32,000 nucleotides of DNA from NCBI GenBank assembly GCA_016933055.1, contig JAFGBS010000028.1, forward strand, positions 30,001-62,000. Reading direction: 5' to 3'. Positions 456 through 32,000 of this stretch are shown here, in pieces. The stretch comes from Promethearchaeota archaeon. Lineage in GTDB: Archaea > Asgardarchaeota > Lokiarchaeia > Sigyniarchaeales > Promethearchaeaceae. Below the pieces are notes generated by a model. That model searched no databases, was not told where the DNA came from, and saw nothing but the letters and a program-made list of their open reading frames with translations. A program made the translations under genes and the position numbers. Numbering within the stretch: the stretch's first letter is position 1; each line of letters opens with the position of its first letter.

Positions 456-957
456 TTATTCTTCCCAATATAGATGCAAACCACACTTTGGACAAAGTTT
501 TGATCGGATTGGGGTTAATTGACTACAGATAGGACATTTTCAGCAGCCCTAGCTTGTGGGAAAGGATTTTTATTAATGGGTTTGGGACGGTGGTTTGAGA
601 TGTCCCTACAGGTTTTGTAACATGTTTGTCATTAAGATAATTAATGAAATGCACTACCTTATTCTTTATTTCATTAACTAAACCATTTGCATCCATTACT
701 AATACGACTGGGCAGACTCCAAGGGGTACGTAAAAATACTTATCCGAAGGTAAAAAATTAAGTAACAACCCCATCATGATGAACAATGAAATTGCCGTCA
801 ATATAAAAATTCCAATTAGCTCCGCAATAGGAGGCTTACTGAATTTTTGTTTATATTCCCCACATTCCCCCATTCTCAATTGCATAATATCCTTTATTTC
901 AAATTTTTCTTTGACGGCTTTATTCTTGTTCATGCTTGAGATTATGTCGATTTGCAT
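456..957 (-). pseudogene. Two-TM membrane protein with C-terminal CxxC-x10-CxxC zinc ribbon, split by an apparent +1 frameshift at 537-540
   Basis: ORF 957-523 has two hydrophobic segments. The alternative frame 539-456 reads KCPICSQLTPIRSKLCPKCGLHLYWEE* and joins if one base of the TTTT run at 537-540 is removed. Could be an assembly indel rather than a true pseudogene. Confidence 0.55.
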
Positions 958-1037
958 CTAGAAATATATTTTGAAATATGATTTTGTCACTAGAGTGAGA
1001 AAGGGGAACCTCCACTTATTTAATGTAGGGAATAAAT

Positions 1038-2051
1038 TCATTGAAATATTGAAGTATCAATGCTCACTTCTTTGCCTGTTCGACTGGATTCGTAAATTGC
1101 ATCAATTACTGCAGTAATTTTCAAACTTTCTTTACCAGTAGCATTGAATGGTTTGTTTCTCATTACGTAACTTATAAAAGCATCTACAATTTTCCCGTAA
1201 CTTAGTAGACCTTTAGCATCTAATGGATATTTTTTACGTTTAACTCGTTGCCATTTCACTTGTGAAAAAATAGAACCTCTAAACAAAATATTTCCTTTTT
1301 CTCCAAATATGCTGATGTGAGTACCTGCTCCAGGGTCATTAGCTGCGGAACTGAGAACTTGAGCGATAGCTCCACTCTCAAACTCAATTAATCCCATTCC
1401 AACATCTTCCACTTCAATATCATGTCTTCGAGTGGCAATTTTCCCACTTACTGAAACTGGAGTACCTAATGCCCAGATAAGTATGTCAATGAAATGTATA
1501 GCATGAGTCATTAATGTCCCCCCTCCCGCTGTTTCGAGTTTTCCGCGCCATGGGCTTGACTCGTAATAATTTTTGGTTCGTTTCCATGGAACATTTACTG
1601 TACCATACATAATCTTTCCAAGATGCCCATCTTGAACAGCTCGAGCCATATTCACTGCTTGAGGATTATATCGGTTTTGAAAGTCAACTCCTATTTTTAC
1701 GCCTTCTTTTTCTGCCTTGTTTACAATACGGATCGCATCGTCCAATTTCGTTGTTAAGGGTTTTTCTATGAAAATGTTGATATTGTTATCGATTGCATCA
1801 TCCATCATAGATGTATGCGTAAAATGAGGAGTTGCAATATATACAGCATCGATATCCTTGCAGTAGTCTTCATAAAACTCATCGGTTGAACAACAATAGG
1901 GGGTTCCCAATTTTTCGCTCCATTTCTTTGCAGATTCCTCGTTTATATCAACAATACATGCCAGTTTAGCCCGTTTGTTCCTTTGAATCATAAATTGGAC
2001 GGTTTTGAAAATTCCACCGGTACCTATAGCTGCAAAATTGAGTTGATTCAT
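1038..2051 (-). CDS. Gfo/Idh/MocA family NAD(P)-dependent oxidoreductase
   Basis: N-terminal Rossmann motif IGTGGI, YIATPHFTH, EKP motif (IFIEKPL) and GGGTLMTHAIHFID. Confidence 0.92.
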   Translation of the reverse strand: MNQLNFAAIGTGGIFKTVQFMIQRNKRAKLACIVDINEESAKKWSEKLGTPYCCSTDEFYEDYCKDIDAVYIATPHFTHTSMMDDAIDNNINIFIEKPLTTKLDDAIRIVNKAEKEGVKIGVDFQNRYNPQAVNMARAVQDGHLGKIMYGTVNVPWKRTKNYYESSPWRGKLETAGGGTLMTHAIHFIDILIWALGTPVSVSGKIATRRHDIEVEDVGMGLIEFESGAIAQVLSSAANDPGAGTHISIFGEKGNILFRGSIFSQVKWQRVKRKKYPLDAKGLLSYGKIVDAFISYVMRNKPFNATGKESLKITAVIDAIYESSRTGKEVSIDTSIFQ

Positions 2052-3389: not shown

Positions 3390-3532
3390 TGGATGGGTAT
3401 TCTACATTAAAACAATCTGATTAATCATTTTCATAGTTGAGTAAACTCTTATCTTTGATTTATGGACATTTTCATAAGTAACACACCATATATTAGTGCA
3501 TACTGATAGATTCCGATGGAATAGGCAAAAAT

Positions 3533-4726
3533 ATGAACAACTTGAAAAATTCACTCATAACCCATCTCGAATGTTCTTTTTGCGGTAAAGTGCATGACGC
3601 TGATGAATTGAATACCGTTTGCAAAAAGTGTGGGAAAGTATTATATCCCAGATACGATTTAGAAAAAGGAAAAGAATGTATCACTCCAAATTCCCTACGA
3701 TTACGGAAAACATACAATTTATGGCGATTCCATGAAATTATGCCGGTCAAACAAGAGAAATATCGAATTTCTCTAGGAGAAGGATGGACTCCACTTATCC
3801 ATCTTAAGAATCTTGGTGAAAAAATGGGATTAAAAGAGTTATACCTAAAAGATGAAGGGCAGAATCCTACGGGAACTTTTAAAAGTAGGGGATTATGTGC
3901 TGCAGTAGCGAAAGGGATAGAATTAGGCGTAAAAGAATTCAGTATGCCCACTGCAGGTAATGCGGGAGCTGCTTTAGCCGCTTATACTGCTCATGCAAGA
4001 GTAAAATCTCACATATTTGCTCCAAAAGACACGGATGAATTCATTCAAGTTGAAATGAAAGCAATGGGTGCGGATCTCACGTTAGTAAATGGTTTGATAA
4101 CTGATGCGGGAGCTGAAGCAAAAAAGATCGGTATTGAGAATGGTTGGTTTGATGTATCCACGTTGAAAGAGCCATATCGAATAGAGGGTAAAAAAACTAT
4201 GGGTTTAGAGCTCGCTGAACACTTTGAATGGGGTCTACCGGATGTTATCATCTACCCAACTGGAGGAGGTACTGGTATTGTTGGCATGTGGAAGGCTTTT
4301 ACAGAATTGGAGGAGCTGGGTTTAATCGGACATGAACGCCCTAAAATGATATCAGTTCAACCCGTTGGATGTCAACCTATTGTACGAGCTTTTGAAAATG
4401 GGGATGAATTTGCAGGAACCTGGCCAAATGCTACGTCAAAATTTGGGGGAATACGTGTTCCATCAGCAATTGGAGATTATTTAATCTTAAGAGCGATTCG
4501 GGAATCACACGGAACTGCTATTGCTGTAGCTGATATCCATACTCATGAATCGATGTTGAAACTTGCAAAACACGAGGGTATTATGATCGCAGGTGAAGCA
4601 GCCGCTACAATTGCCGCATTGGAAAAATTGAACGATAATGGATTCGTAGATAAAACTCAAAAAATTGTATTGTTTGGTACAGGTTCTGGGTTAGTAACGC
4701 CTTCGTTATGGTCTTCTTCACCATAG
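3533..4726 (+). CDS. thrC: Threonine synthase (PLP, fold type II) with N-terminal Zn ribbon
   Basis: CSFC...CKKC, SLGEGWTPL, PLP-lysine motif NPTGTFKSRG, TAGNAG, PTGGGTG, FGTGSG. Confidence 0.88.
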   Translation: MNNLKNSLITHLECSFCGKVHDADELNTVCKKCGKVLYPRYDLEKGKECITPNSLRLRKTYNLWRFHEIMPVKQEKYRISLGEGWTPLIHLKNLGEKMGLKELYLKDEGQNPTGTFKSRGLCAAVAKGIELGVKEFSMPTAGNAGAALAAYTAHARVKSHIFAPKDTDEFIQVEMKAMGADLTLVNGLITDAGAEAKKIGIENGWFDVSTLKEPYRIEGKKTMGLELAEHFEWGLPDVIIYPTGGGTGIVGMWKAFTELEELGLIGHERPKMISVQPVGCQPIVRAFENGDEFAGTWPNATSKFGGIRVPSAIGDYLILRAIRESHGTAIAVADIHTHESMLKLAKHEGIMIAGEAAATIAALEKLNDNGFVDKTQKIVLFGTGSGLVTPSLWSSSP

Positions 4727-4958
4727 TGATCTTAATTTTCTGAATTGAATCTTCGAAAAATATCTTCAGGTACAGCCTTGGATGAATGAGAAAATCGAAA
4801 ATAATAATATTGAAGATGATATTGAGGAACATGATAGATACATGAAAATCTAAAAAGTTTAGACGAAACATAGCAATAAGATCGTTTTTTTTAGGAAAAG
4901 GATCGACCAGGGGTATTAATCTCAAAAACCTAAAATCAAATGCAATATCCCTATTATT

Positions 4959-19328: not shown

Positions 19329-19919
19329 CTATCCTAACACGTATTCTATGGATAATTGATTAAAATATGGGCTTCCCGAATCTGTTGCTACCCGAAAACC
19401 AGATGCTGCCCCTGTCCATGCCCTTATTTCGTAATAATTTTCAGCACTAGTAGCATTAATATATAAACTACCCTTTGCATAATAAAAAATATCAATGACC
19501 GGATTACCAGTCGAAAATCTTTCAAAATATGCCTTTTCAGTGTTATTTTCCATTAAATAAACCCAAAAAGTCGAATCAACATCAAGAATTCCTCCAAAAA
19601 CCACAGCAAGATTGATTTTATATAATCCTGGAACAATTAAAGAAAAACGTGTGCTATTAATTACGTTGACATAATTAGTTTCCAGTACTATTTGATCCTC
19701 ATACTCAATCAGAAAATTGCTAACTGTAGTGTAAAGTGGATTATTTACCAAGTTCTCATCTAAATCCTCCCACAGTGCGACAAGCTTCAAACCTTCAGTT
19801 TCATGGGTATGATCATCTCCTCCCAAAAAGGTATCATTTACAAACATATAGCCACTCAATCCTAATCCTGCGATTGCAAGTATCGCTAAAAAAATAATTG
19901 CTCCTTTATTATTTGCCAT
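19329..19919 (-). CDS. Hypothetical single-pass membrane-anchored beta-rich protein
   Basis: N-terminal hydrophobic helix, His-containing linker, beta-strand-rich body (FSLIVPGLYKINL). Confidence 0.7.
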   Translation of the reverse strand: MANNKGAIIFLAILAIAGLGLSGYMFVNDTFLGGDDHTHETEGLKLVALWEDLDENLVNNPLYTTVSNFLIEYEDQIVLETNYVNVINSTRFSLIVPGLYKINLAVVFGGILDVDSTFWVYLMENNTEKAYFERFSTGNPVIDIFYYAKGSLYINATSAENYYEIRAWTGAASGFRVATDSGSPYFNQLSIEYVLG

Positions 19920-22927: not shown

Positions 22928-23039
22928 ATCCAATTGTATGAAGAATCGAGGAAATAAACACCTCGAAAGAATTAAGCTTAAAGCAAAAGAAACTTCATTA
23001 CATTTTATAGTTCGATAATTCATTACACACGGTGCTGAA

Positions 23040-24410
23040 ATGACAAGGGATTCAAGCAAACAAGATCAAGAAGTATTCATTAAATGGACAGCATATCTTG
23101 ATATGATGAAGCATGTTCTTCGGTTTGGTTCCAATGCCATTCCTAAGAACAGTTGCCGGGAATGCATGGGTTTATTAATCGGTCATTTATCAGGTACAGC
23201 GAATGATAAGGGTATTCAACGAGTCATTATCGAGGTTGCAGTTCCGGTATCGCATGGAGGTAGTATTGAAGTTGCTTTTCGACCTCAAGATTATGTAGCT
23301 TTTAGTGAACTTGAAGAACAATATTTGGAACGTGGTTGGTTTACGGTCGGTTGGTATCACTCTCATCCCGGTTTAACATGTTTTTTCTCTTCCACAGACA
23401 TTATCAATCAGTTAGGTTGGCAGACTAACAATCCCAGTGCTATAGGGATTGTGTGGGATCATCAAAGACTATTCAAAAAAGGGGATATGGGATTTGAGAT
23501 GTATCGTCTTGATAATCCTGCACTGGGTCCTGCATCTGGTTACCATAAGGTGTCTTTTACGGTCGAAACACCTAATAATATAGACTATTATAGTAAATTC
23601 GCAGAGATTATAACGAGATATCAGAGTACTTTACCTCCTATATTTGAAATTAATGAAGTACCTACTATATTCAAAGAAATTCAATTCCCAAAAATTCACT
23701 TGAGACTACCCCAAAAATTTGAAGATGAAATGGGAGAATTATTCAACCAGTTTCGTTCTCTATCAGCTGAGGAATTCGAATCAGCTATTGCATTATTCAT
23801 CCACAAATTAACCACCGATCTGAACGATTATTCTCAAAGTATTGCGAGTGTTTACCAGTTTCTACTCATAAAATTACAATCTTTATTTATTAGTCTAAAT
23901 CAAGCAGTTGGTCGCATTCAGCATTGGTATACGAACAGCATTCAAGAGTTTTTACAATCATTGGACGGTAAATTAAAAAATATGCTTTCTTTTAATGATG
24001 AACAAAAATTAGAAGTACAGGGAAATCTAAATGATATCATCATAAATATCGAAGATAATCTAAATAAGGCGTTTGATAGGGAAATCAAAAAAAGTTTGAA
24101 TGAGATTGCACAAAGGATAGCAATCATCGTGGATAAATATATGAAAATTGGTGAAACTTCTCGGATTGCTGCAAGCGAGATCGCAATTCAGAAACAAGAT
24201 ACAGATGATATTTTTAATTTATTCAAACAAAAAATCGTTCAAGTGAAATCAAACGGTGTAAAAACCGTTGCAGAAACGGGTAATAACTTAAATAATGAGA
24301 TGAATGAAGTTAGTGAGAGACTATTTGGGATCGAAAGACAAATTGAAGTGATTAATAAACGAATAGGGACCATATCAAAAAATCTTAAAAAATGGAGGCG
24401 GAAACTGTGA
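23040..24410 (+). CDS. JAMM/MPN+ metalloprotease (Rpn11/CSN5-like) with long C-terminal coiled coil
   Basis: E41 in ECMGLLIG; complete JAMM motif H107-S-H109-x7-S117-xx-D120 (WYHSHPGLTCFFSSTD); helical heptad-like C-terminal half. Confidence 0.88.
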   Translation: MTRDSSKQDQEVFIKWTAYLDMMKHVLRFGSNAIPKNSCRECMGLLIGHLSGTANDKGIQRVIIEVAVPVSHGGSIEVAFRPQDYVAFSELEEQYLERGWFTVGWYHSHPGLTCFFSSTDIINQLGWQTNNPSAIGIVWDHQRLFKKGDMGFEMYRLDNPALGPASGYHKVSFTVETPNNIDYYSKFAEIITRYQSTLPPIFEINEVPTIFKEIQFPKIHLRLPQKFEDEMGELFNQFRSLSAEEFESAIALFIHKLTTDLNDYSQSIASVYQFLLIKLQSLFISLNQAVGRIQHWYTNSIQEFLQSLDGKLKNMLSFNDEQKLEVQGNLNDIIINIEDNLNKAFDREIKKSLNEIAQRIAIIVDKYMKIGETSRIAASEIAIQKQDTDDIFNLFKQKIVQVKSNGVKTVAETGNNLNNEMNEVSERLFGIERQIEVINKRIGTISKNLKKWRRKL

Positions 24411-25660
24411 ATCAAGATCAAATAAATTCCCACGATCCCTCAAAAGGAATTCTTACTATTACACCCGAGGCATTTATTACCTTATTAAAACATGTATTGT
24501 TCCACGTGGATCCTTCTTCACTTCAGCAGTTATCAGTTGGTGGCATTCTTACTGGAGATATTATAGATGAGGACATTATTATAAAGGAAGTCATCCCTTG
24601 TTTTCACGGGCATCAACTTAAAATGGAATTTGTTGACAATTATCAAAAAGTGTTATCCCAAAGAATCCCCAAAAGTGGAAAAGCAATGGGATGGTATTCC
24701 TCCCGCTTAGGAGATAATGTTGAATTTAATCCAAACAATCTTCAAACCCATAGTTTATTCCAGAATATGGAAAATCCTAAAGCCTTCACATTAATCATTG
24801 GTTTGCAAGCAGCAAATGATCTTCCTGTTACTCTCAAAGCATATAGATTTCACGATTTAAAAAATAAAATATTCGATAATATTAAACCACTTTCAATAGT
24901 TGTGCAACCACCTGAATCAATTAACGTGTTTGAGCATATTCAGAAAATAATTGAAGGTTTTCAAGGACAAAAATCGATTCACCAAGATGAAATCCTCTTG
25001 GAAAATGCTCTTAGAGCCCCCATCGGGAATCTCGCTTCTTCTTCACCAGCAGCTCGAATAGTACTCGATAAGTTCAAAAATTCTACCAATACGATTAAAG
25101 AATTTTTACTAGCTAATGAAGCTAAATTATATTCCGTAATAAATTCTATTTTGCGTAATATTCAAGATGGATTTAATTCTGTATTACAAGGAATGCAAAC
25201 TACCTTAAAACAAGAAGCTGAGGTGATAATGGAATCTGTAGAGCAAAATTTTGAAGAAATCCAAAAAGATGGTGATAACTTATCTGTAATCTTAAACCAA
25301 ATGACTGATAAAATCTCTATGGATTATGGTATACTTCTAAAGAATGTCTTAGAGCCTAAATTAAAAGATTTTAAAGACAATCTTGTGGAGATAGTTGAGG
25401 AATCTGCAGATATTGAGCATAAAATCGAATTATTCACAGATTCGGTTAAAGGACAGCAGAATACATTGGAGATATTCAGAAATTCGTTAGAAACAGATAC
25501 CAGTTCAGTTGAGGAAAGCATTAAAGTACTTAAGAAGAAATTAGATGATAAAAACTTGGGAATCAAGAAAACTACGGAAAAATCCATAGATAAAATTCAA
25601 GAAGAAATGAAAAAAATCGAGGAAAGTCTTCAAAAAATAGAAAAAATGATGGAAAACTAA
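24392..25660 (+). CDS. Catalytically inactive MPN- paralogue with long C-terminal coiled coil (probable start GTG 24407)
   Basis: Aligns by eye to the upstream MPN (KHVL, GILTG, GWY, AYRF) but lacks all JAMM ligands. GGAGG SD at 24394-24398 and GTGA start/stop overlap. Confidence 0.8.
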   Translation: MEAETVNQDQINSHDPSKGILTITPEAFITLLKHVLFHVDPSSLQQLSVGGILTGDIIDEDIIIKEVIPCFHGHQLKMEFVDNYQKVLSQRIPKSGKAMGWYSSRLGDNVEFNPNNLQTHSLFQNMENPKAFTLIIGLQAANDLPVTLKAYRFHDLKNKIFDNIKPLSIVVQPPESINVFEHIQKIIEGFQGQKSIHQDEILLENALRAPIGNLASSSPAARIVLDKFKNSTNTIKEFLLANEAKLYSVINSILRNIQDGFNSVLQGMQTTLKQEAEVIMESVEQNFEEIQKDGDNLSVILNQMTDKISMDYGILLKNVLEPKLKDFKDNLVEIVEESADIEHKIELFTDSVKGQQNTLEIFRNSLETDTSSVEESIKVLKKKLDDKNLGIKKTTEKSIDKIQEEMKKIEESLQKIEKMMEN

Positions 25661-29469: not shown

Positions 29470-30804
29470 TTATACTTTGATGTAAATATGATACCTATCC
29501 ATTAACCAAGCAACAAGATACATAATCAGCATAGGCACCAGAAAGGCAATTAATCCCATTAGATCTACCAAAGGGTGTGTCAATTCTGCAACTCCAAATA
29601 ATGAAGCCATTTGGGTCCTAAATGCTAAAGCATCTCCCCATATTTCAGGATAGGTTAGAGTAAAAATCCCTTGAAACAAGAATAAGAATAACGCATTACG
29701 TCCAATATGAGTAAGAGGGGGAATTTTATATTTATAAAAGAACTCGAGTGAAAAAAACACTATAACCAGCAAACAACTGAATGCAATCGCAAGTAATCCC
29801 AATGAAAGATTAATACCATGATGTTCTGCGGTTTGGAAAAAATCTACAATGAAATGCAGCAATCCTGTTATCAGCATAATTGGAATGACTCTTTTCTTAA
29901 ATCCTATAATCTGATCATTGGGATCCATTTGCATCCAATCCCATATACAAGTAGCAGTTATTGCTATTGCTCCCATGGCTAACATATCAAATGGGATGTC
30001 CCATTGTGACCAGAATGCTTGGATTGACGCATTGATTATTGGTTTAAATTCCCACATAATAAAGTGTCCTAGATAGATAATAATTGCTATAATGATACGA
30101 AAATCAGGTTTTTTAATTAAAAATACAAATACTGCTGCAAAAAGAGTACCCCATGCTAAATGTGCTGGTGCTTCTAAGAAAAAAGCACTCCAAAAATAAC
30201 CGGAACCTAAAACTTTAGGAATACGAGCTTGAACACACCATAAACCAATAGAAGACAAAGCCCAAACTACTCCAAAAAGTGGCCGATAGATATTATCTTT
30301 AAATTTTCTCAAATTCCGGAGTACAGCTGCACCAACTGTTATTAAAACCCATATAACTAATGCGATGACTTTAAAGATTGGAAAATCGAAATCCACCGAA
30401 ATTACTTGAGAAATCCAGAAAAATGAAAAAACTCTATGTAACACAGTTAACCAAGCAAAGTGCAACCCTTTTTTTTCAACTTTACTTTTAAAACTAAGAC
30501 TTAGTGAAATTCCTAACATAAACATGAAGATTTGTGAGCCCAAATCGATGATAGTAATAATCACGGGTTGTTGATCATAATACTCCCAACCATGATTCAA
30601 CCAAGTAGGCCCCAAGGGTGGTGTAATAGCAAAATTCTCGGAAGCTAATTCCCAAGTCAAGGATGCGATTACCAAAAACACGATAACCATACCTCTAAAT
30701 TGATCAAGCCAGTCATATCTGGGATGAGTTGATCTCTTAAATTGTCCCTTAGAAATTCCTTCAGTATGAACTTCTTCGGAATTTAATTTTTCGTTTTCAG
30801 GCAT
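29470..30804 (-). CDS. Heparan-alpha-glucosaminide N-acetyltransferase-like (DUF1624/DUF5009) multi-pass membrane protein
   Basis: RYDWLDQFRG, LNHGW...ITIIDL...FMFMLGIS, IGRNALFLF; about 11 TM segments. Confidence 0.75.
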   Translation of the reverse strand: MPENEKLNSEEVHTEGISKGQFKRSTHPRYDWLDQFRGMVIVFLVIASLTWELASENFAITPPLGPTWLNHGWEYYDQQPVIITIIDLGSQIFMFMLGISLSLSFKSKVEKKGLHFAWLTVLHRVFSFFWISQVISVDFDFPIFKVIALVIWVLITVGAAVLRNLRKFKDNIYRPLFGVVWALSSIGLWCVQARIPKVLGSGYFWSAFFLEAPAHLAWGTLFAAVFVFLIKKPDFRIIIAIIIYLGHFIMWEFKPIINASIQAFWSQWDIPFDMLAMGAIAITATCIWDWMQMDPNDQIIGFKKRVIPIMLITGLLHFIVDFFQTAEHHGINLSLGLLAIAFSCLLVIVFFSLEFFYKYKIPPLTHIGRNALFLFLFQGIFTLTYPEIWGDALAFRTQMASLFGVAELTHPLVDLMGLIAFLVPMLIMYLVAWLMDRYHIYIKV

Positions 30805-30927: not shown

Positions 30928-32000
30928 TTAGAATTTAAGGTAAATCTTGAATCTGTCTAACACCCATGCGATACAAATCAATAGAGCAATCGGAACAAAA
31001 AACAAACCAAGTCCAATAGCATTTCCAAGCAAGCCGGGAAACCGTCTTCGAAAATCGTAAGCATTAAACCAAAAAAATCCGTAAAAAAATAGGTAGATTC
31101 CTTGTAGGAGAAACATTAGCAATGCATTTCGACCAAGTGGAGTAAGAAAGGGCATTTTCGCATCAAAATAGGTATCCCACGCGTAAAACATAATAAGAAA
31201 AAAAATCGCAAAAAAGATGGATAAAGCTGCTAACGAAGCGGTAATCCCATCATGTCGTGCTGGTTGGAGGAAATCAACTACGAAATGGAAACACAGTATG
31301 AATACCCAATAAGGAAGTATACGTTTTTTTATTCCATCTAATTGAGTGGGATAAGACTTGAGTAGCCAATCACTAACGCAAGTGGCTGAAATAGCAATGG
31401 CTGTCATATTGATGATATTAAAGGGAATACCAACGACATCCAAAGGAGTTCCGGGAAGAACTTCAAAAAACCAGTGGGTTGGGTGGGTTAACTTTGTTTT
31501 AGCAAGTTCCCATAATCCGATATGAATAGCGAACAAACCGAATGATGCAAGGATTCGACGATCAGGATTTTTTACAAGAGTCAGAAAAAATACTGCAAAG
31601 AGAGACGCCCATGCTAAATAAGCGAGAGTTTCATTAAAAAAGATAGTCCAGATATTCTCTTCGACAGTAGGGAACCAAATAATAACTGAAAGGACAGACC
31701 AACCTAACATTAAAAGAATTTTTTCATTCGATTTTTTGAATAAGGTTATCCGCAATATAATTGTCAATGTTGTTATAAATATCCAAGATAAAATGCAAAT
31801 TACGTCGAATCGAGTCAATTTCCAATCAGGTAAAATACGGTAGAATATTTTCGTTACTTGGTTTACCCAGAGTAACGCAAAAAATCGAGAAATACCACTT
31901 ACCCATGCATACCATAATCCTATCTTCTTGGATTTGCTATTAAAAGAAATTGCTGAGCTTATACCGAGAACAAACATAAATAAAGATGAACCCATATCGA
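30928..32000 (-). CDS. Tandem paralogue of the HGSNAT-like protein (5'-truncated by window edge)
   Basis: DMGSSLFMFVLGIS, LAYLAWASLF, LGRNALLMF and terminal YLKF parallel 29470-30804; the frame runs off the window. Confidence 0.75.
   Translation of the reverse strand, partial: DMGSSLFMFVLGISSAISFNSKSKKIGLWYAWVSGISRFFALLWVNQVTKIFYRILPDWKLTRFDVICILSWIFITTLTIILRITLFKKSNEKILLMLGWSVLSVIIWFPTVEENIWTIFFNETLAYLAWASLFAVFFLTLVKNPDRRILASFGLFAIHIGLWELAKTKLTHPTHWFFEVLPGTPLDVVGIPFNIINMTAIAISATCVSDWLLKSYPTQLDGIKKRILPYWVFILCFHFVVDFLQPARHDGITASLAALSIFFAIFFLIMFYAWDTYFDAKMPFLTPLGRNALLMFLLQGIYLFFYGFFWFNAYDFRRRFPGLLGNAIGLGLFFVPIALLICIAWVLDRFKIYLKF

Follow-up and report, generated by a model that had tools for sequence, protein, structure and literature searches.

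Dimers of an MPN+ and an MPN− protein are central to the lid of the proteasome, to the COP9 signalosome and to both eIF3 and the complexes of BRCC36, and are regarded as a eukaryotic feature. In the pairing of BRCC36 with KIAA0157/Abraxas, the MPN+ enzyme needs its MPN− partner for activity and the C-terminal helices form a bundle (PMC4579573). Rpn8 and Rpn11 are arranged in an antiparallel manner (PMC6043591). An MPN+/MPN− organisation is not known in archaea, and the archaeal CsRpn11 was crystallised as a parallel homodimer held through H1 and H4, which was likened to Rpn8–Rpn11 (PMC6043591). The 32,000-nucleotide stretch of Promethearchaeota archaeon DNA analysed here (the window) carries two adjacent genes for MPN proteins, ORF1 (MPN-A) and ORF2 (MPN-B), whose families are referred to below as A and B. 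It is considered probable that they represent a two-gene operon of one Loki-type Asgard order encoding an A/B heterodimer, convergent with the eukaryotic MPN+/MPN− pairs and likely to act on isopeptide-linked ubiquitin (Ub) or ubiquitin-like (Ubl) substrates. No published description of the A/B pair was found in the literature searched.

ORF1 was found to match the Pfam JAB family (PF01398) with an E-value of 4.8e-12 and a score of 46.2 bits, where the cut-off is 22.5. Alignment showed a complete JAMM pentad with the spacing E...HxH-x7-S-x2-D, made up of the same residues (E41, H107, H109, S117 and D120) that had been listed in a preliminary description of this DNA made from the sequence alone. 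The likeness to Rpn11 stated there was also correct, as the segment VGWYHSHPGLTCFFSSTD pairs with vvgwyhshpgfgcwlssvd of yeast Rpn11 in a search of the PDB. Rpn11 was the best sequence match among solved structures (E 4.2e-11), and this search together with Foldseek gave Rpn11, CSN5 and BRCC36 as the nearest solved relatives, with BRCC36 (E 1e-5 to 1e-3 in the PDB search) weaker than either Rpn11 or CSN5. With the predicted structure of ORF1 as query, Foldseek returned Rpn11 (4ocm_E, E 1.7e-11, TM by target 0.69) and 5u4p_B (TM by target 0.74). By these comparisons ORF1 is an Rpn11/CSN5/BRCC36-like JAMM protein with a predicted intact zinc site. The coordinates of this and the other features of the locus are given in Table 1.

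Table 1. Features of the MPN-A/MPN-B locus (positions are those of the window; residues of ORF2 are in ATG numbering)
Feature	Position	Strand	Length or basis
TTTTATA, possible archaeal TATA box ~34 nt upstream of the ORF1 ATG	23003..23009	+	Read from sequence, inference
ORF1 (MPN-A), predicted catalytic JAMM/MPN+ subunit	23040..24410	+	456 aa
ORF1 MPN domain, residues ~10-196, with helix 1 (16-30) and helix 4 (181-195)	23067..23627	+	Model
E41 codon, general-base Glu of the JAMM motif	23160..23162	+	Alignment
H107-S-H109-x7-S117-x2-D120, intact JAMM zinc site of ORF1	23358..23399	+	Alignment
ORF1 helical tail, residues 225-455	23712..24407	+	Model; 333-452 is the predicted coiled-coil part
ORF2 (MPN-B), predicted pseudo-enzyme partner	24392..25660	+	422 aa from ATG 24392 or 417 aa from GTG 24407
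GGAGG, Shine-Dalgarno-like, within the 3' end of ORF1, 8 nt upstream of GTG	24394..24398	+	Sequence
GTGA, likely ORF2 GTG (24407-24409) overlapping the ORF1 stop TGA (24408-24410)	24407..24410	+	Sequence
ORF2 MPN− domain, residues ~20-192, with helix 1 (25-37) and helix 4 (178-192)	24449..24967	+	Model
S48, at the site of the catalytic Glu	24533..24535	+	Alignment
S103-S-R105-x7-N113-x2-N116, fully degenerate former zinc site of ORF2	24698..24739	+	Alignment
ORF2 helical tail, residues 219-421	25046..25657	+	Model; 301-420 is the predicted coiled-coil part

Within ORF2, all five ligands of the JAMM site are replaced, and the substituting residues (S48, S103, R105, N113 and N116) and their numbering agree with those first proposed. 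In the 7/7 full-length orthologues the second His has become Arg, with the Glu and the first His also gone. The single ORF2 sequence falls below the Pfam JAB threshold. Its suggested status as a paralogue of ORF1 was upheld by a BLASTP match that is weak yet above chance (E 2e-4, 19% identity over 130 residues) and by profile and fold evidence. A profile of the ORF2 family matched eIF3h (2.4e-5) and Rpn11 (3.2e-5) in the PDB at 26 bits each, and Foldseek matched the ORF2 model to Rpn11 (4o8x_B, E 7e-10, TM by target 0.70), to CSN5, eIF3h and CsRpn11, and to chains from the BRCA1-A and BRCC36–KIAA0157 complexes. Ten open frames, full-length or nearly so and of ~50% identity, represent the ORF2 orthologues, and the best conserved stretch of the protein is residues 321-360. 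The model of ORF2 indicates that the MPN fold and the tail are retained though all five catalytic residues are lost in the window lineage.

Both models have a mean pLDDT of 69 and a pTM of ~0.45, with values of 55-80 in the tails and mostly 78-91 in the MPN core of ORF1, so that confidence in both is only moderate. The long helical tails anticipated for both proteins appear in these models as ~200-230 residues each, with helices beyond the MPN domain at residues 225-240, 243-313 and 320-455 of ORF1 and 219-241, 243-337 and 341-421 of ORF2. An atlas search for the tail of ORF1 yielded no feature matches of use, with only generic long helices as structural neighbours, and an AlphaFold DB cluster search added nothing beyond MPN proteins that had no name or an automatic one. 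Pfam matches of the tails to Apolipoprotein, Baculo_PEP_C, ATG17-like and DUF1664 entries were rejected as homology, all being far under their cut-offs, and are read as generic helical similarity. Two giant Asgard coiled-coil proteins (P0133 and P0134) were likewise rejected as relatives of the tails, the likeness being compositional (best pairwise E 0.28) and involving Apolipoprotein-type Pfam repeats.

At the junction of the two genes, the GTGA overlap and GGAGG Shine-Dalgarno-like sequence reported earlier are both present. GTG 24407 is the likely start of ORF2, given that the database record of the protein (P0001) has 417 aa and that a Met is found at the aligned position in 7/7 full-length orthologues, three of which start there. 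A start at ATG 24392 is possible, and the two genes overlap with either codon. It should also be noted that if the candidate TATA box upstream of ORF1 is real, the leader of the ORF1 transcript would be very short or absent.

The distribution of the pair was examined by counting B-type genes at a threshold of E<=1e-75. Within the GTDB order of the window, one family had them in 124/135 genomes and a second in its single genome, and they were patchy in the window's own family (3/13 in addition to the window genome). None was found in 11 genomes drawn from the class's other families or in ~250 genomes from other Asgard classes. A genome of the same genus (G131, 76% complete) gave no match to ORF2, and the pair is absent from the cultured strain MK-D1. 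Apparent occurrences on loci that NCBI names as Hermod-, Hod- or Odinarchaeota were discarded as evidence for other lineages, since the same contigs belong in GTDB to genomes of the window's order (G199, G204 and G256). Among the genomes sampled, the A/B pair is thus seen to be confined to one Asgard order. The adjacency of the two genes, named earlier as a point to check in relatives, was observed in 71/72 A genes, each with a same-strand B immediately downstream and gaps mainly of -1 to +15 nt; the exception ends 20 nt short of a contig end. No longer fused A-B proteins were found by search, an absence that counts as weak evidence. The five-residue site (EHHSD) is intact in 43/43 non-redundant copies of A and in 44/44 of the other MPN paralogues, but in only 12/62 of B, among which ~30 kinds of degenerate pattern occur.

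Genes surrounding the pair are not conserved. In the window, TYW2/Trm5-like, Band-7 and OMP-decarboxylase-like genes lie upstream and two ABC exporter genes downstream; these neighbours are common to a close relative, and a more distant pair lies among unrelated genes. No PCI gene is present in the window, and a genome-wide search with PF01399 gave weak matches only (<=33 bits) on other contigs, with control genomes matching as well (4/14). No ESCRT gene was found near the pair.

To place the two families, a quick tree was made of Asgard MPN paralogues alone, so that the relation to Rpn8 and CSN6 was judged by relative scores and the Asgard topology. A and B each formed one clade (SH-aLRT 97) and were sisters to each other (SH-aLRT 89), with single-gene long-tailed MPN proteins of other Asgard lineages just outside. 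Of the two placements named in the preliminary description, with Rpn8/CSN6/eIF3f or beside ORF1, this Asgard-only tree returned the second. A B protein with an intact site (P0131) scored 144 bits against the ORF1 MPN domain. Its top matches in the PDB were CsRpn11 (57 bits) and CSN5 (43 bits), and the matches comprised MPN+ chains only, with no MPN− family. The Asgard tree and PDB scores came out against orthology of B with Rpn8, CSN6 or eIF3f, and common descent of the pair with BRCC36 and Abraxas came out negative as well, B stemming from the A/B duplication. By these criteria B is a sister paralogue of A arising from an old tandem duplication, and not a sister to Rpn8/CSN6.

The window B branch is very long (1.55 + 0.48 substitutions per site). 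In the free quick tree its clade was joined with two other long branches (L080 and L013), a grouping rejected as long-branch attraction; a constrained tree uniting it with the intact B of its nearest relatives scored better (log-likelihood 20.8 higher, p-AU 0.74). As the basal and many other B copies retain the full active site, the inactivity of B appears to be derived and repeated, and the window lineage is placed as having lost its ligands independently. The position of B as sister to A, the matching of intact B to MPN+ proteins rather than Rpn8/CSN6 and the confinement to one order together favour an A/B arrangement that originated within this order, as a convergent counterpart of the eukaryotic pairs and not as their ancestor. 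The preliminary description had offered an ancestral arrangement or a convergent local duplication, of which the convergent, lineage-specific duplication is retained and the ancestral option is not.

An interaction of the two proteins, also suggested previously, was supported by complex prediction, with a score of 0.72 (runs of 0.72, 0.72 and 0.74) against 0.00 for the best of three controls. Among solved complexes 58/80 reached the mark applied, as did 2/110 of the mismatched pairs, counts that are approximate here as own alignments were supplied. The runs had a contact agreement of at least 54% and a partner pLDDT of at least 64. The pass may partly echo model memory of the solved Rpn8–Rpn11, CSN5–CSN6 and BRCC36–KIAA0157 dimers. 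Predicted contacts fall between helix 1/helix 4 of the ORF1 MPN domain and helix 1/helix 4 of that of ORF2, and ORF1 333-452 is paired in parallel with ORF2 301-420 at a constant offset of 32 residues.

From these data a working model can be proposed. ORF1 and ORF2 would be co-translated by way of their overlapping stop and start codons and would assemble as a 1:1 heterodimer, with helices 1 and 4 of the two MPN domains packed as a four-helix bundle and the tails joined in a parallel, in-register coiled coil of ~120 residues, or roughly 18 nm. A would be the cleaving subunit, and B would stabilise, position or regulate it, in the manner of Rpn8, CSN6 and Abraxas/KIAA0157 towards their own active subunits. 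The likeliest substrates would be ubiquitin or ubiquitin-like isopeptide conjugates; ubiquitin, E1 and E2 genes are present elsewhere in the genome. In lineages in which the site of B is intact (about a fifth of the non-redundant B copies), the complex may hold two active subunits.

Other explanations have to be set against this model. In one of them the pair would be ancestral to the eukaryotic MPN+/MPN− dimers, with ORF2 orthologous to Rpn8, CSN6, eIF3f or Abraxas and the arrangement passed on to eukaryotes. In its favour, Rpn11, CSN5 and BRCC36 are the nearest solved relatives of ORF1, the MPN− protein eIF3h is the best PDB sequence match of the ORF2 family, and the predicted dimer uses the helix-1/helix-4 surfaces of the CsRpn11 dimer (PMC6043591). 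However, the eIF3h match is no better in bits than that to Rpn11, and such an ancestry is rendered very improbable by the position of B as sister to A within Asgard, the full active site of basal and many other B copies, the exclusive matching of intact B to MPN+ proteins and the restriction of the pair to one order, with none in the other Asgard classes sampled. It is barely credible that ORF2 is a functionless duplicate heading for loss, even with five of its five ligands gone, a very long branch, orthologues of only 47-50% identity (65-69% for ORF1) and no match in the same-genus genome. The reading frame is uninterrupted in the window as in 9/9 relatives, invariant columns are numerous and cluster in the tail, neither the start overlap nor the Shine-Dalgarno-like site has been lost, and inactive B copies persist in >100 genomes.

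Closer to the favoured model, A and B could act separately, for example as stalked homodimers, with ORF2 serving as a non-enzymatic coiled-coil adaptor, decoy or substrate receptor. The parallel H1/H4 homodimer of the CsRpn11 crystal (PMC6043591) is in keeping with this, as is the presumed self-association of the single-gene proteins that branch outside the A/B clade, and the complex scoring is known to let through close cousins of a true partner as well. It is nevertheless an unlikely explanation in view of the tight adjacency of the genes, usually at near-zero or overlapping spacing, and of the gap between the heteromer score and its controls. In addition, the site is kept without exception in A but degenerates in B, a pattern consistent with a single catalytic subunit in each complex, and the predicted interface residues are conserved above the rest (tail 0.90 vs 0.77, MPN 0.82 vs 0.75, permutation p 0.03). 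The complex could also be real without being a deubiquitinase, acting instead on some other Ubl (for example of SAMP/Urm1-like type), on a precursor peptide or on a protein that is not a Ubl, with the stalk as a tether to a cellular structure. The substrates of prokaryotic JAMMs are varied, and five MPN proteins are encoded in the window genome. As stated in the preliminary description, the window is devoid of Ub, E1 and E2 genes; a Ub-E1-E2-JAB operon with its own, separate JAB protease is found on another contig (C16) of the same genome, where the ubiquitin gene occupies 93130-93303, and none of the loci examined showed linkage of the pair to a gene of the ubiquitin system. For this reason ubiquitin is put forward as the A-B substrate from family resemblance. 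Against another type of substrate, ORF1 scores higher with the eukaryote-type JAB (46 bits) than with Prok-JAB (34 bits) and every one of the solved proteins nearest to it is a Ub/Nedd8 isopeptidase, which makes this possibility quite unlikely. The convergent heterodimer with probable Ub/Ubl substrates is thus the preferred reading.

If so, the same design would be present as an independent invention in the archaeal phylum closest to eukaryotes. Independent invention in Asgard would imply that it is easily reached, from a homodimer by way of a duplicated heterodimer to a dimer with one dead subunit. The pair would also be a second JAMM system in the Asgard ubiquitin toolkit, unlinked to the ubiquitin operon. 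Since related genomes combine an A that is always intact with B subunits in every phase of decay, any functional gain from inactivation would be directly testable. More tentatively, and with some doubt, it can be proposed that one Asgard order independently invented an obligate active/dead MPN heterodimer on an ~18 nm coiled-coil stalk, an editor of ubiquitin signals separate from the Ub-operon protease and from any proteasome lid, with B caught at every stage of becoming a pseudo-enzyme. Were this true, those stages would be an intact site, loss of the Glu, loss of one His, loss of all ligands and a convergent His-to-Arg filling of the metal site, and would provide a natural series for how and why MPN+/MPN− pairs arise.

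Among described systems, the ESCRT-associated AMSH/STAMBP/Sst2 proteins resemble ORF1 in the JAMM core (E ~1e-5) and in combining a stand-alone MPN+ domain with a helical targeting region; they differ in having no MPN− partner and in the N-terminal location of their helical MIT domain. CsRpn11 of Caldiarchaeum subterraneum (PDB 6FJU, 6FNN) is likewise an archaeal eukaryote-like JAMM and the top PDB match of intact B. In contrast to the pair, it is encoded by a single gene in a Ub-E1-E2-E3 operon, without an inactive partner or long coiled coil, and the window genome has a separate operon-linked protein of this kind on contig C16. The active/inactive paralogue dimers Rpn11–Rpn8, CSN5–CSN6 and eIF3h–eIF3f include the top matches of ORF1 by sequence and fold (TM by target ~0.7), and the A/B contact is likewise predicted to involve helices 1 and 4 of the two MPN domains. 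The A/B genes differ from these PCI-complex pairs in being without PCI-domain partners nearby, B is no closer to Rpn8, CSN6 and eIF3f than to MPN+ proteins, and the helix-4 pair and tails run parallel in the model, unlike Rpn8–Rpn11. BRCC36–Abraxas/KIAA0157 (ABRO1), the core of BRCA1-A and BRISC, differs in that there is no orthology, B being the sister of A. The A/B tails are also far longer (~200-230 residues, with ~120 in a predicted two-stranded coiled coil), no further A/B subunits are known, and B appears still catalytically intact in some lineages. The architecture predicted for the pair nonetheless resembles it, with an MPN+/MPN− dimer in which each subunit carries C-terminal helices. 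The ORF1 model aligns over 320-329 columns with the BRCC36 chains 6gvw_B and 6h3c_B, reaching into the tail, and the ORF2 model matches other chains in entries of the BRCA1-A and BRCC36–KIAA0157 complexes, namely 6gvw_F/A and 5cw3_B/D. Judged by these models, A and B probably form a pair like the eukaryotic dimers of a deubiquitinase and a pseudo-enzyme.

The region 23040-25660 was found to be occupied by two genes on the same strand, ORF1 and ORF2 (see Table). The product of ORF1 matched Pfam JAB above threshold (E 4.8e-12), and the complete JAMM set reported in the preliminary description (E41, H107, H109, S117, D120) could be read from the alignment. Its closest solved relative in a PDB sequence search was Rpn11 (E 4.2e-11), the alignment bearing out the claimed segment likeness, with matches also to the Caldiarchaeum Rpn11 homologue (8.8e-8), CSN5 (5.7e-7) and AMSH and BRCC36 (about 1e-5). 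As a single sequence ORF2 reached none of the Pfam thresholds. However, its description as a paralogue of ORF1 was upheld by BLASTP (19% identity across 130 residues, E 2e-4) together with MPN-type profile and fold matches. A profile built from ORF2 together with its nine relatives matched eIF3h (2.4e-5) and Rpn11 (3.2e-5) in the PDB, and the AlphaFold model (34 input sequences, mean pLDDT 69) matched Rpn11 (4o8x_B, E 7e-10, TM by target 0.70), supporting an MPN fold, with further structural matches to CSN5, eIF3h, CsRpn11 and the BRCA1-A and BRCC36-KIAA0157 chains. All five catalytic positions are indeed replaced in ORF2 (S48, S103, R105, N113, N116, numbered from the ATG). The helical tails noted for both proteins appear in the models as very long helices after a low-confidence linker. 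The GTGA overlap with GGAGG is likewise present at the junction, and ORF2 is more likely to start there than at the ATG, since the protein is recorded in the database with 417 aa and orthologues have a Met aligned to this position.

Features of the A-B pair, related loci and unmatched frames
Feature	Location	Coordinates	Strand	Remarks
ORF1 (A)	window	23040-24410	+	456 aa
ORF2 (B), from ATG	window	24392 (start)	+	422 aa
GGAGG	window	24394-24398	+	junction
GTG, ORF2 start candidate	window	24407	+	junction
TGA, ORF1 stop	window	24408-24410	+	junction
Open frame	window	19329-19919	-	196 aa; no Pfam match at E<=0.001
Open frame	window	29470-30804	-	444 aa; no Pfam match at E<=0.001
Open frame	window	30928-31995	-	355 aa; no Pfam match at E<=0.001
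C and zinc-ribbon gene	L039	1452-2408, 2661-3308	-, +	
C and zinc-ribbon gene	L004 (window genome)	910-1869, 1983-2600	-, +	
Ub-E1-E2-JAB operon (L119, L121)	G000, contig C16	about 93130-96045		classical Asgard ubiquitin operon
Fifth MPN+ protein of window genome	L002, contig C16	466-1878	-	470 aa
A gene in two open frames	L035 (genome G211)	44-640, 706-1491	+	198 and 261 aa
A genes with insertion	L067, L071, L073, L074, L076, L077, L079	near 3474-4928		

Close orthologues of ORF1 and ORF2 (hereafter A and B) adjoin each other on metagenome contigs, as directly checked at locus L008 and inferred for three further contigs from the matching lengths of the contigs on which A and B were each found, with 65-69% identity to ORF1 and only 47-50% to ORF2. 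Distant loci keep the same tandem of an A gene followed immediately by a B gene. At the loci fetched, a same-strand B directly followed 71 of 72 A genes, mostly at a spacing of -1 to +15 nt, and the adjacent pair is thus kept in related genomes; the sole exception stops 20 nt short of a contig end. A search for a fused A-B protein found none. The neighbours of the pair are not conserved: those of the window (upstream, genes resembling TYW2/Trm5, Band-7 and OMP decarboxylase; downstream, on the opposite strand, two ABC exporter genes) are common to the close relative L008, and the more distant L005 pair lies among unrelated genes.

A B-family profile was searched against 400 genomes of the phylum (E<=1e-75). 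Within the order, B was detected in 124/135 genomes of family f3, in the single genome of f2 and in 3/13 genomes of the window's own family f1, plus the window genome. It was detected in 0/11 genomes of other families of the class and in none of about 250 from other classes, and the pair is absent from the cultured strain MK-D1. Occurrence in Hermod-, Hod- and Odinarchaeota, as suggested by NCBI labels, was rejected: these contigs are GTDB genomes of the window's order, and the pair is therefore not shown outside it. The NCBI titles concerned are those of MAGs at L040, L069 and L063 (also L079, L084 and L094), of which three instead read Nanopelagicaceae, Bathyarchaeota or Deferrimicrobium. 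L040, L069 and L063 correspond to G199, G204 and G256 of the order, with identical coordinates and scores, which points to unreliable labels or to mis-binning of the contigs.

The JAMM pentad was intact in 43/43 non-redundant A copies (two of these being gapped at the Glu in the alignment), in 20/20 copies of the shorter paralogue C and in 24/24 other long MPN proteins, but in only 12 of 62 non-redundant B copies. About 30 B patterns were seen, including EHHSD, QHHSD, AHHSD, ESHSE, EIHTD, EHRSD, EIRTT, NHIQN and the SSRNN of the window, the most degenerate B in the data set, and a single genus-level group can hold several states. The second His is replaced by Arg in three separate clades (the window clade, EIRTT/ELRTT and EHRSD), and the side chain of this Arg might occupy the empty metal site. 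In the ORF2 R105 column, the change from CAY to CGY is one transition. In one A subgroup a four-residue insertion within the JAMM motif (HSHPNLFQHKIFFSPTD) lengthens the His-to-Ser spacing; the B partners of this subgroup carry Gln where the catalytic Glu would be. At L035 it is the A gene that is split, the adjoining B being whole with an intact EHHSD site; this may be an assembly error, or A rather than B may be broken in this lineage.

Binding of the two proteins is supported by prediction of the full-length complex using our own alignments A2 and A3, which scored 0.72 (runs 0.72, 0.72, 0.74) against 0.00 for the best of three controls. The 0.72 mark is met by 58/80 solved complexes and 2/110 mismatched pairs, counts that are rough given the use of our own alignments. 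Contacts agreed by at least 54% between runs, with a partner pLDDT of at least 64. The confident predicted contacts between the MPN domains involve helix 1 and helix 4 on each side (ORF1 16-34 and 175-200, ORF2 28-42 and 171-192). Those between the tails link ORF1 333-452 to ORF2 301-420, with residue numbers always 32 apart and a 3-4 spacing, as in a coiled coil whose strands run parallel and in register for about 120 residues, or about 18 nm by arithmetic. As the predicted interface resembles the published H1/H4 MPN interface, the score may partly owe to solved MPN dimers. Within the ORF2 clade, predicted interface positions exceeded the others in conservation (tail 0.90 vs 0.77, MPN 0.82 vs 0.75, p 0.03), although the core of coiled coils in general tends towards a similar bias. 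The tail portion of the B profile also matched giant Asgard coiled-coil proteins (P0133, 2239 aa; P0134, 1907 aa); both carry Apolipoprotein-type repeats above Pfam's cut-off, and they were rejected as relatives of the B tail since the similarity looks compositional.

The pair had been proposed to be either ancestral to the eukaryotic arrangement or a convergent local duplication. In a quick MPN-domain tree (123 rows, IQ-TREE quick search, LG+C20 PMSF, no eukaryotic sequences), A and B each formed one clade (SH-aLRT 97 for both) and were sisters (89), agreeing with the option that ORF2 is sister to ORF1; single-gene long-tailed MPN proteins of other Asgard lineages fell just outside, and basal B copies had an intact site. 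One intact B copy matched the ORF1 MPN domain at 144 bits and any PDB chain at 57 bits at most, its PDB matches being exclusively MPN+ proteins. Because of this tree, these matches and the order-level distribution, a lineage-specific tandem duplication, convergent with the eukaryotic pairs, is favoured over ancestry. Within the A clade, ORF1 of the window falls together with its counterparts at L005 and L014, of which L014 belongs to the same family as the window, and both have intact B partners. The free tree joined the very long window B branch to two other long branches; constraining the window B clade with the L005 and L014 B copies raised the log-likelihood by 20.8 (p-AU 0.74), in an AU test weakened by the constraint having been chosen after the first tree was viewed. 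As the nearest relatives of ORF1 have intact partners and the constrained tree is better, site loss in the window lineage was independent, took place inside the MK-D1-related family and was followed by fast evolution.

Pairs of family f3 usually have a zinc-ribbon protein gene and a divergent C-type MPN+ gene ahead of them, a module directly upstream in 27/71 pairs whose flank could be checked. The C protein, an intact MPN+ paralogue, is about 316 aa long and has a short helical tail; its gene is divergent from that for the zinc-ribbon protein (about 205-215 aa, C-terminal double zinc ribbon). In the window genome this module lies alone on contig C17, separate from A-B, and MK-D1 has the C type only. 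The window genome also carries an operon for ubiquitin (PF00240), a ThiF-type E1 (415 aa), a UQ_con E2 (175 aa) and a JAB protease (266 aa), which makes the existence of ubiquitin conjugates in the organism probable; contigs C17 and C22 hold, respectively, a second ubiquitin-like match and a second E2. The A-B pair is thus an extra JAMM system, unlinked to the ubiquitin operon. It is reasonably likely to be a heterodimeric isopeptidase with A as the catalytic subunit and B as a structural or regulatory pseudo-enzyme, and by family resemblance its substrate would be ubiquitin or a Ubl. The C-terminal half of a fifth MPN+ protein (L002) had no Pfam match and by eye resembles TPR-type helical repeats more than coiled coil; relatives of this protein, some 510-540 aa long, occur widely among Asgard genomes (L088-L118).

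Full-text literature searches found no description of an archaeal MPN+/MPN- pair, the nearest reports being of Asgard clusters with single Jab1/MPN genes only, and such an organisation has been stated not to be known in archaea (PMC6043591). The same study found that the parallel CsRpn11 homodimer uses an H1/H4 interface, called reminiscent of Rpn8-Rpn11, and the predicted A-B dimer resembles this homodimer in associating via helix 1 and helix 4.
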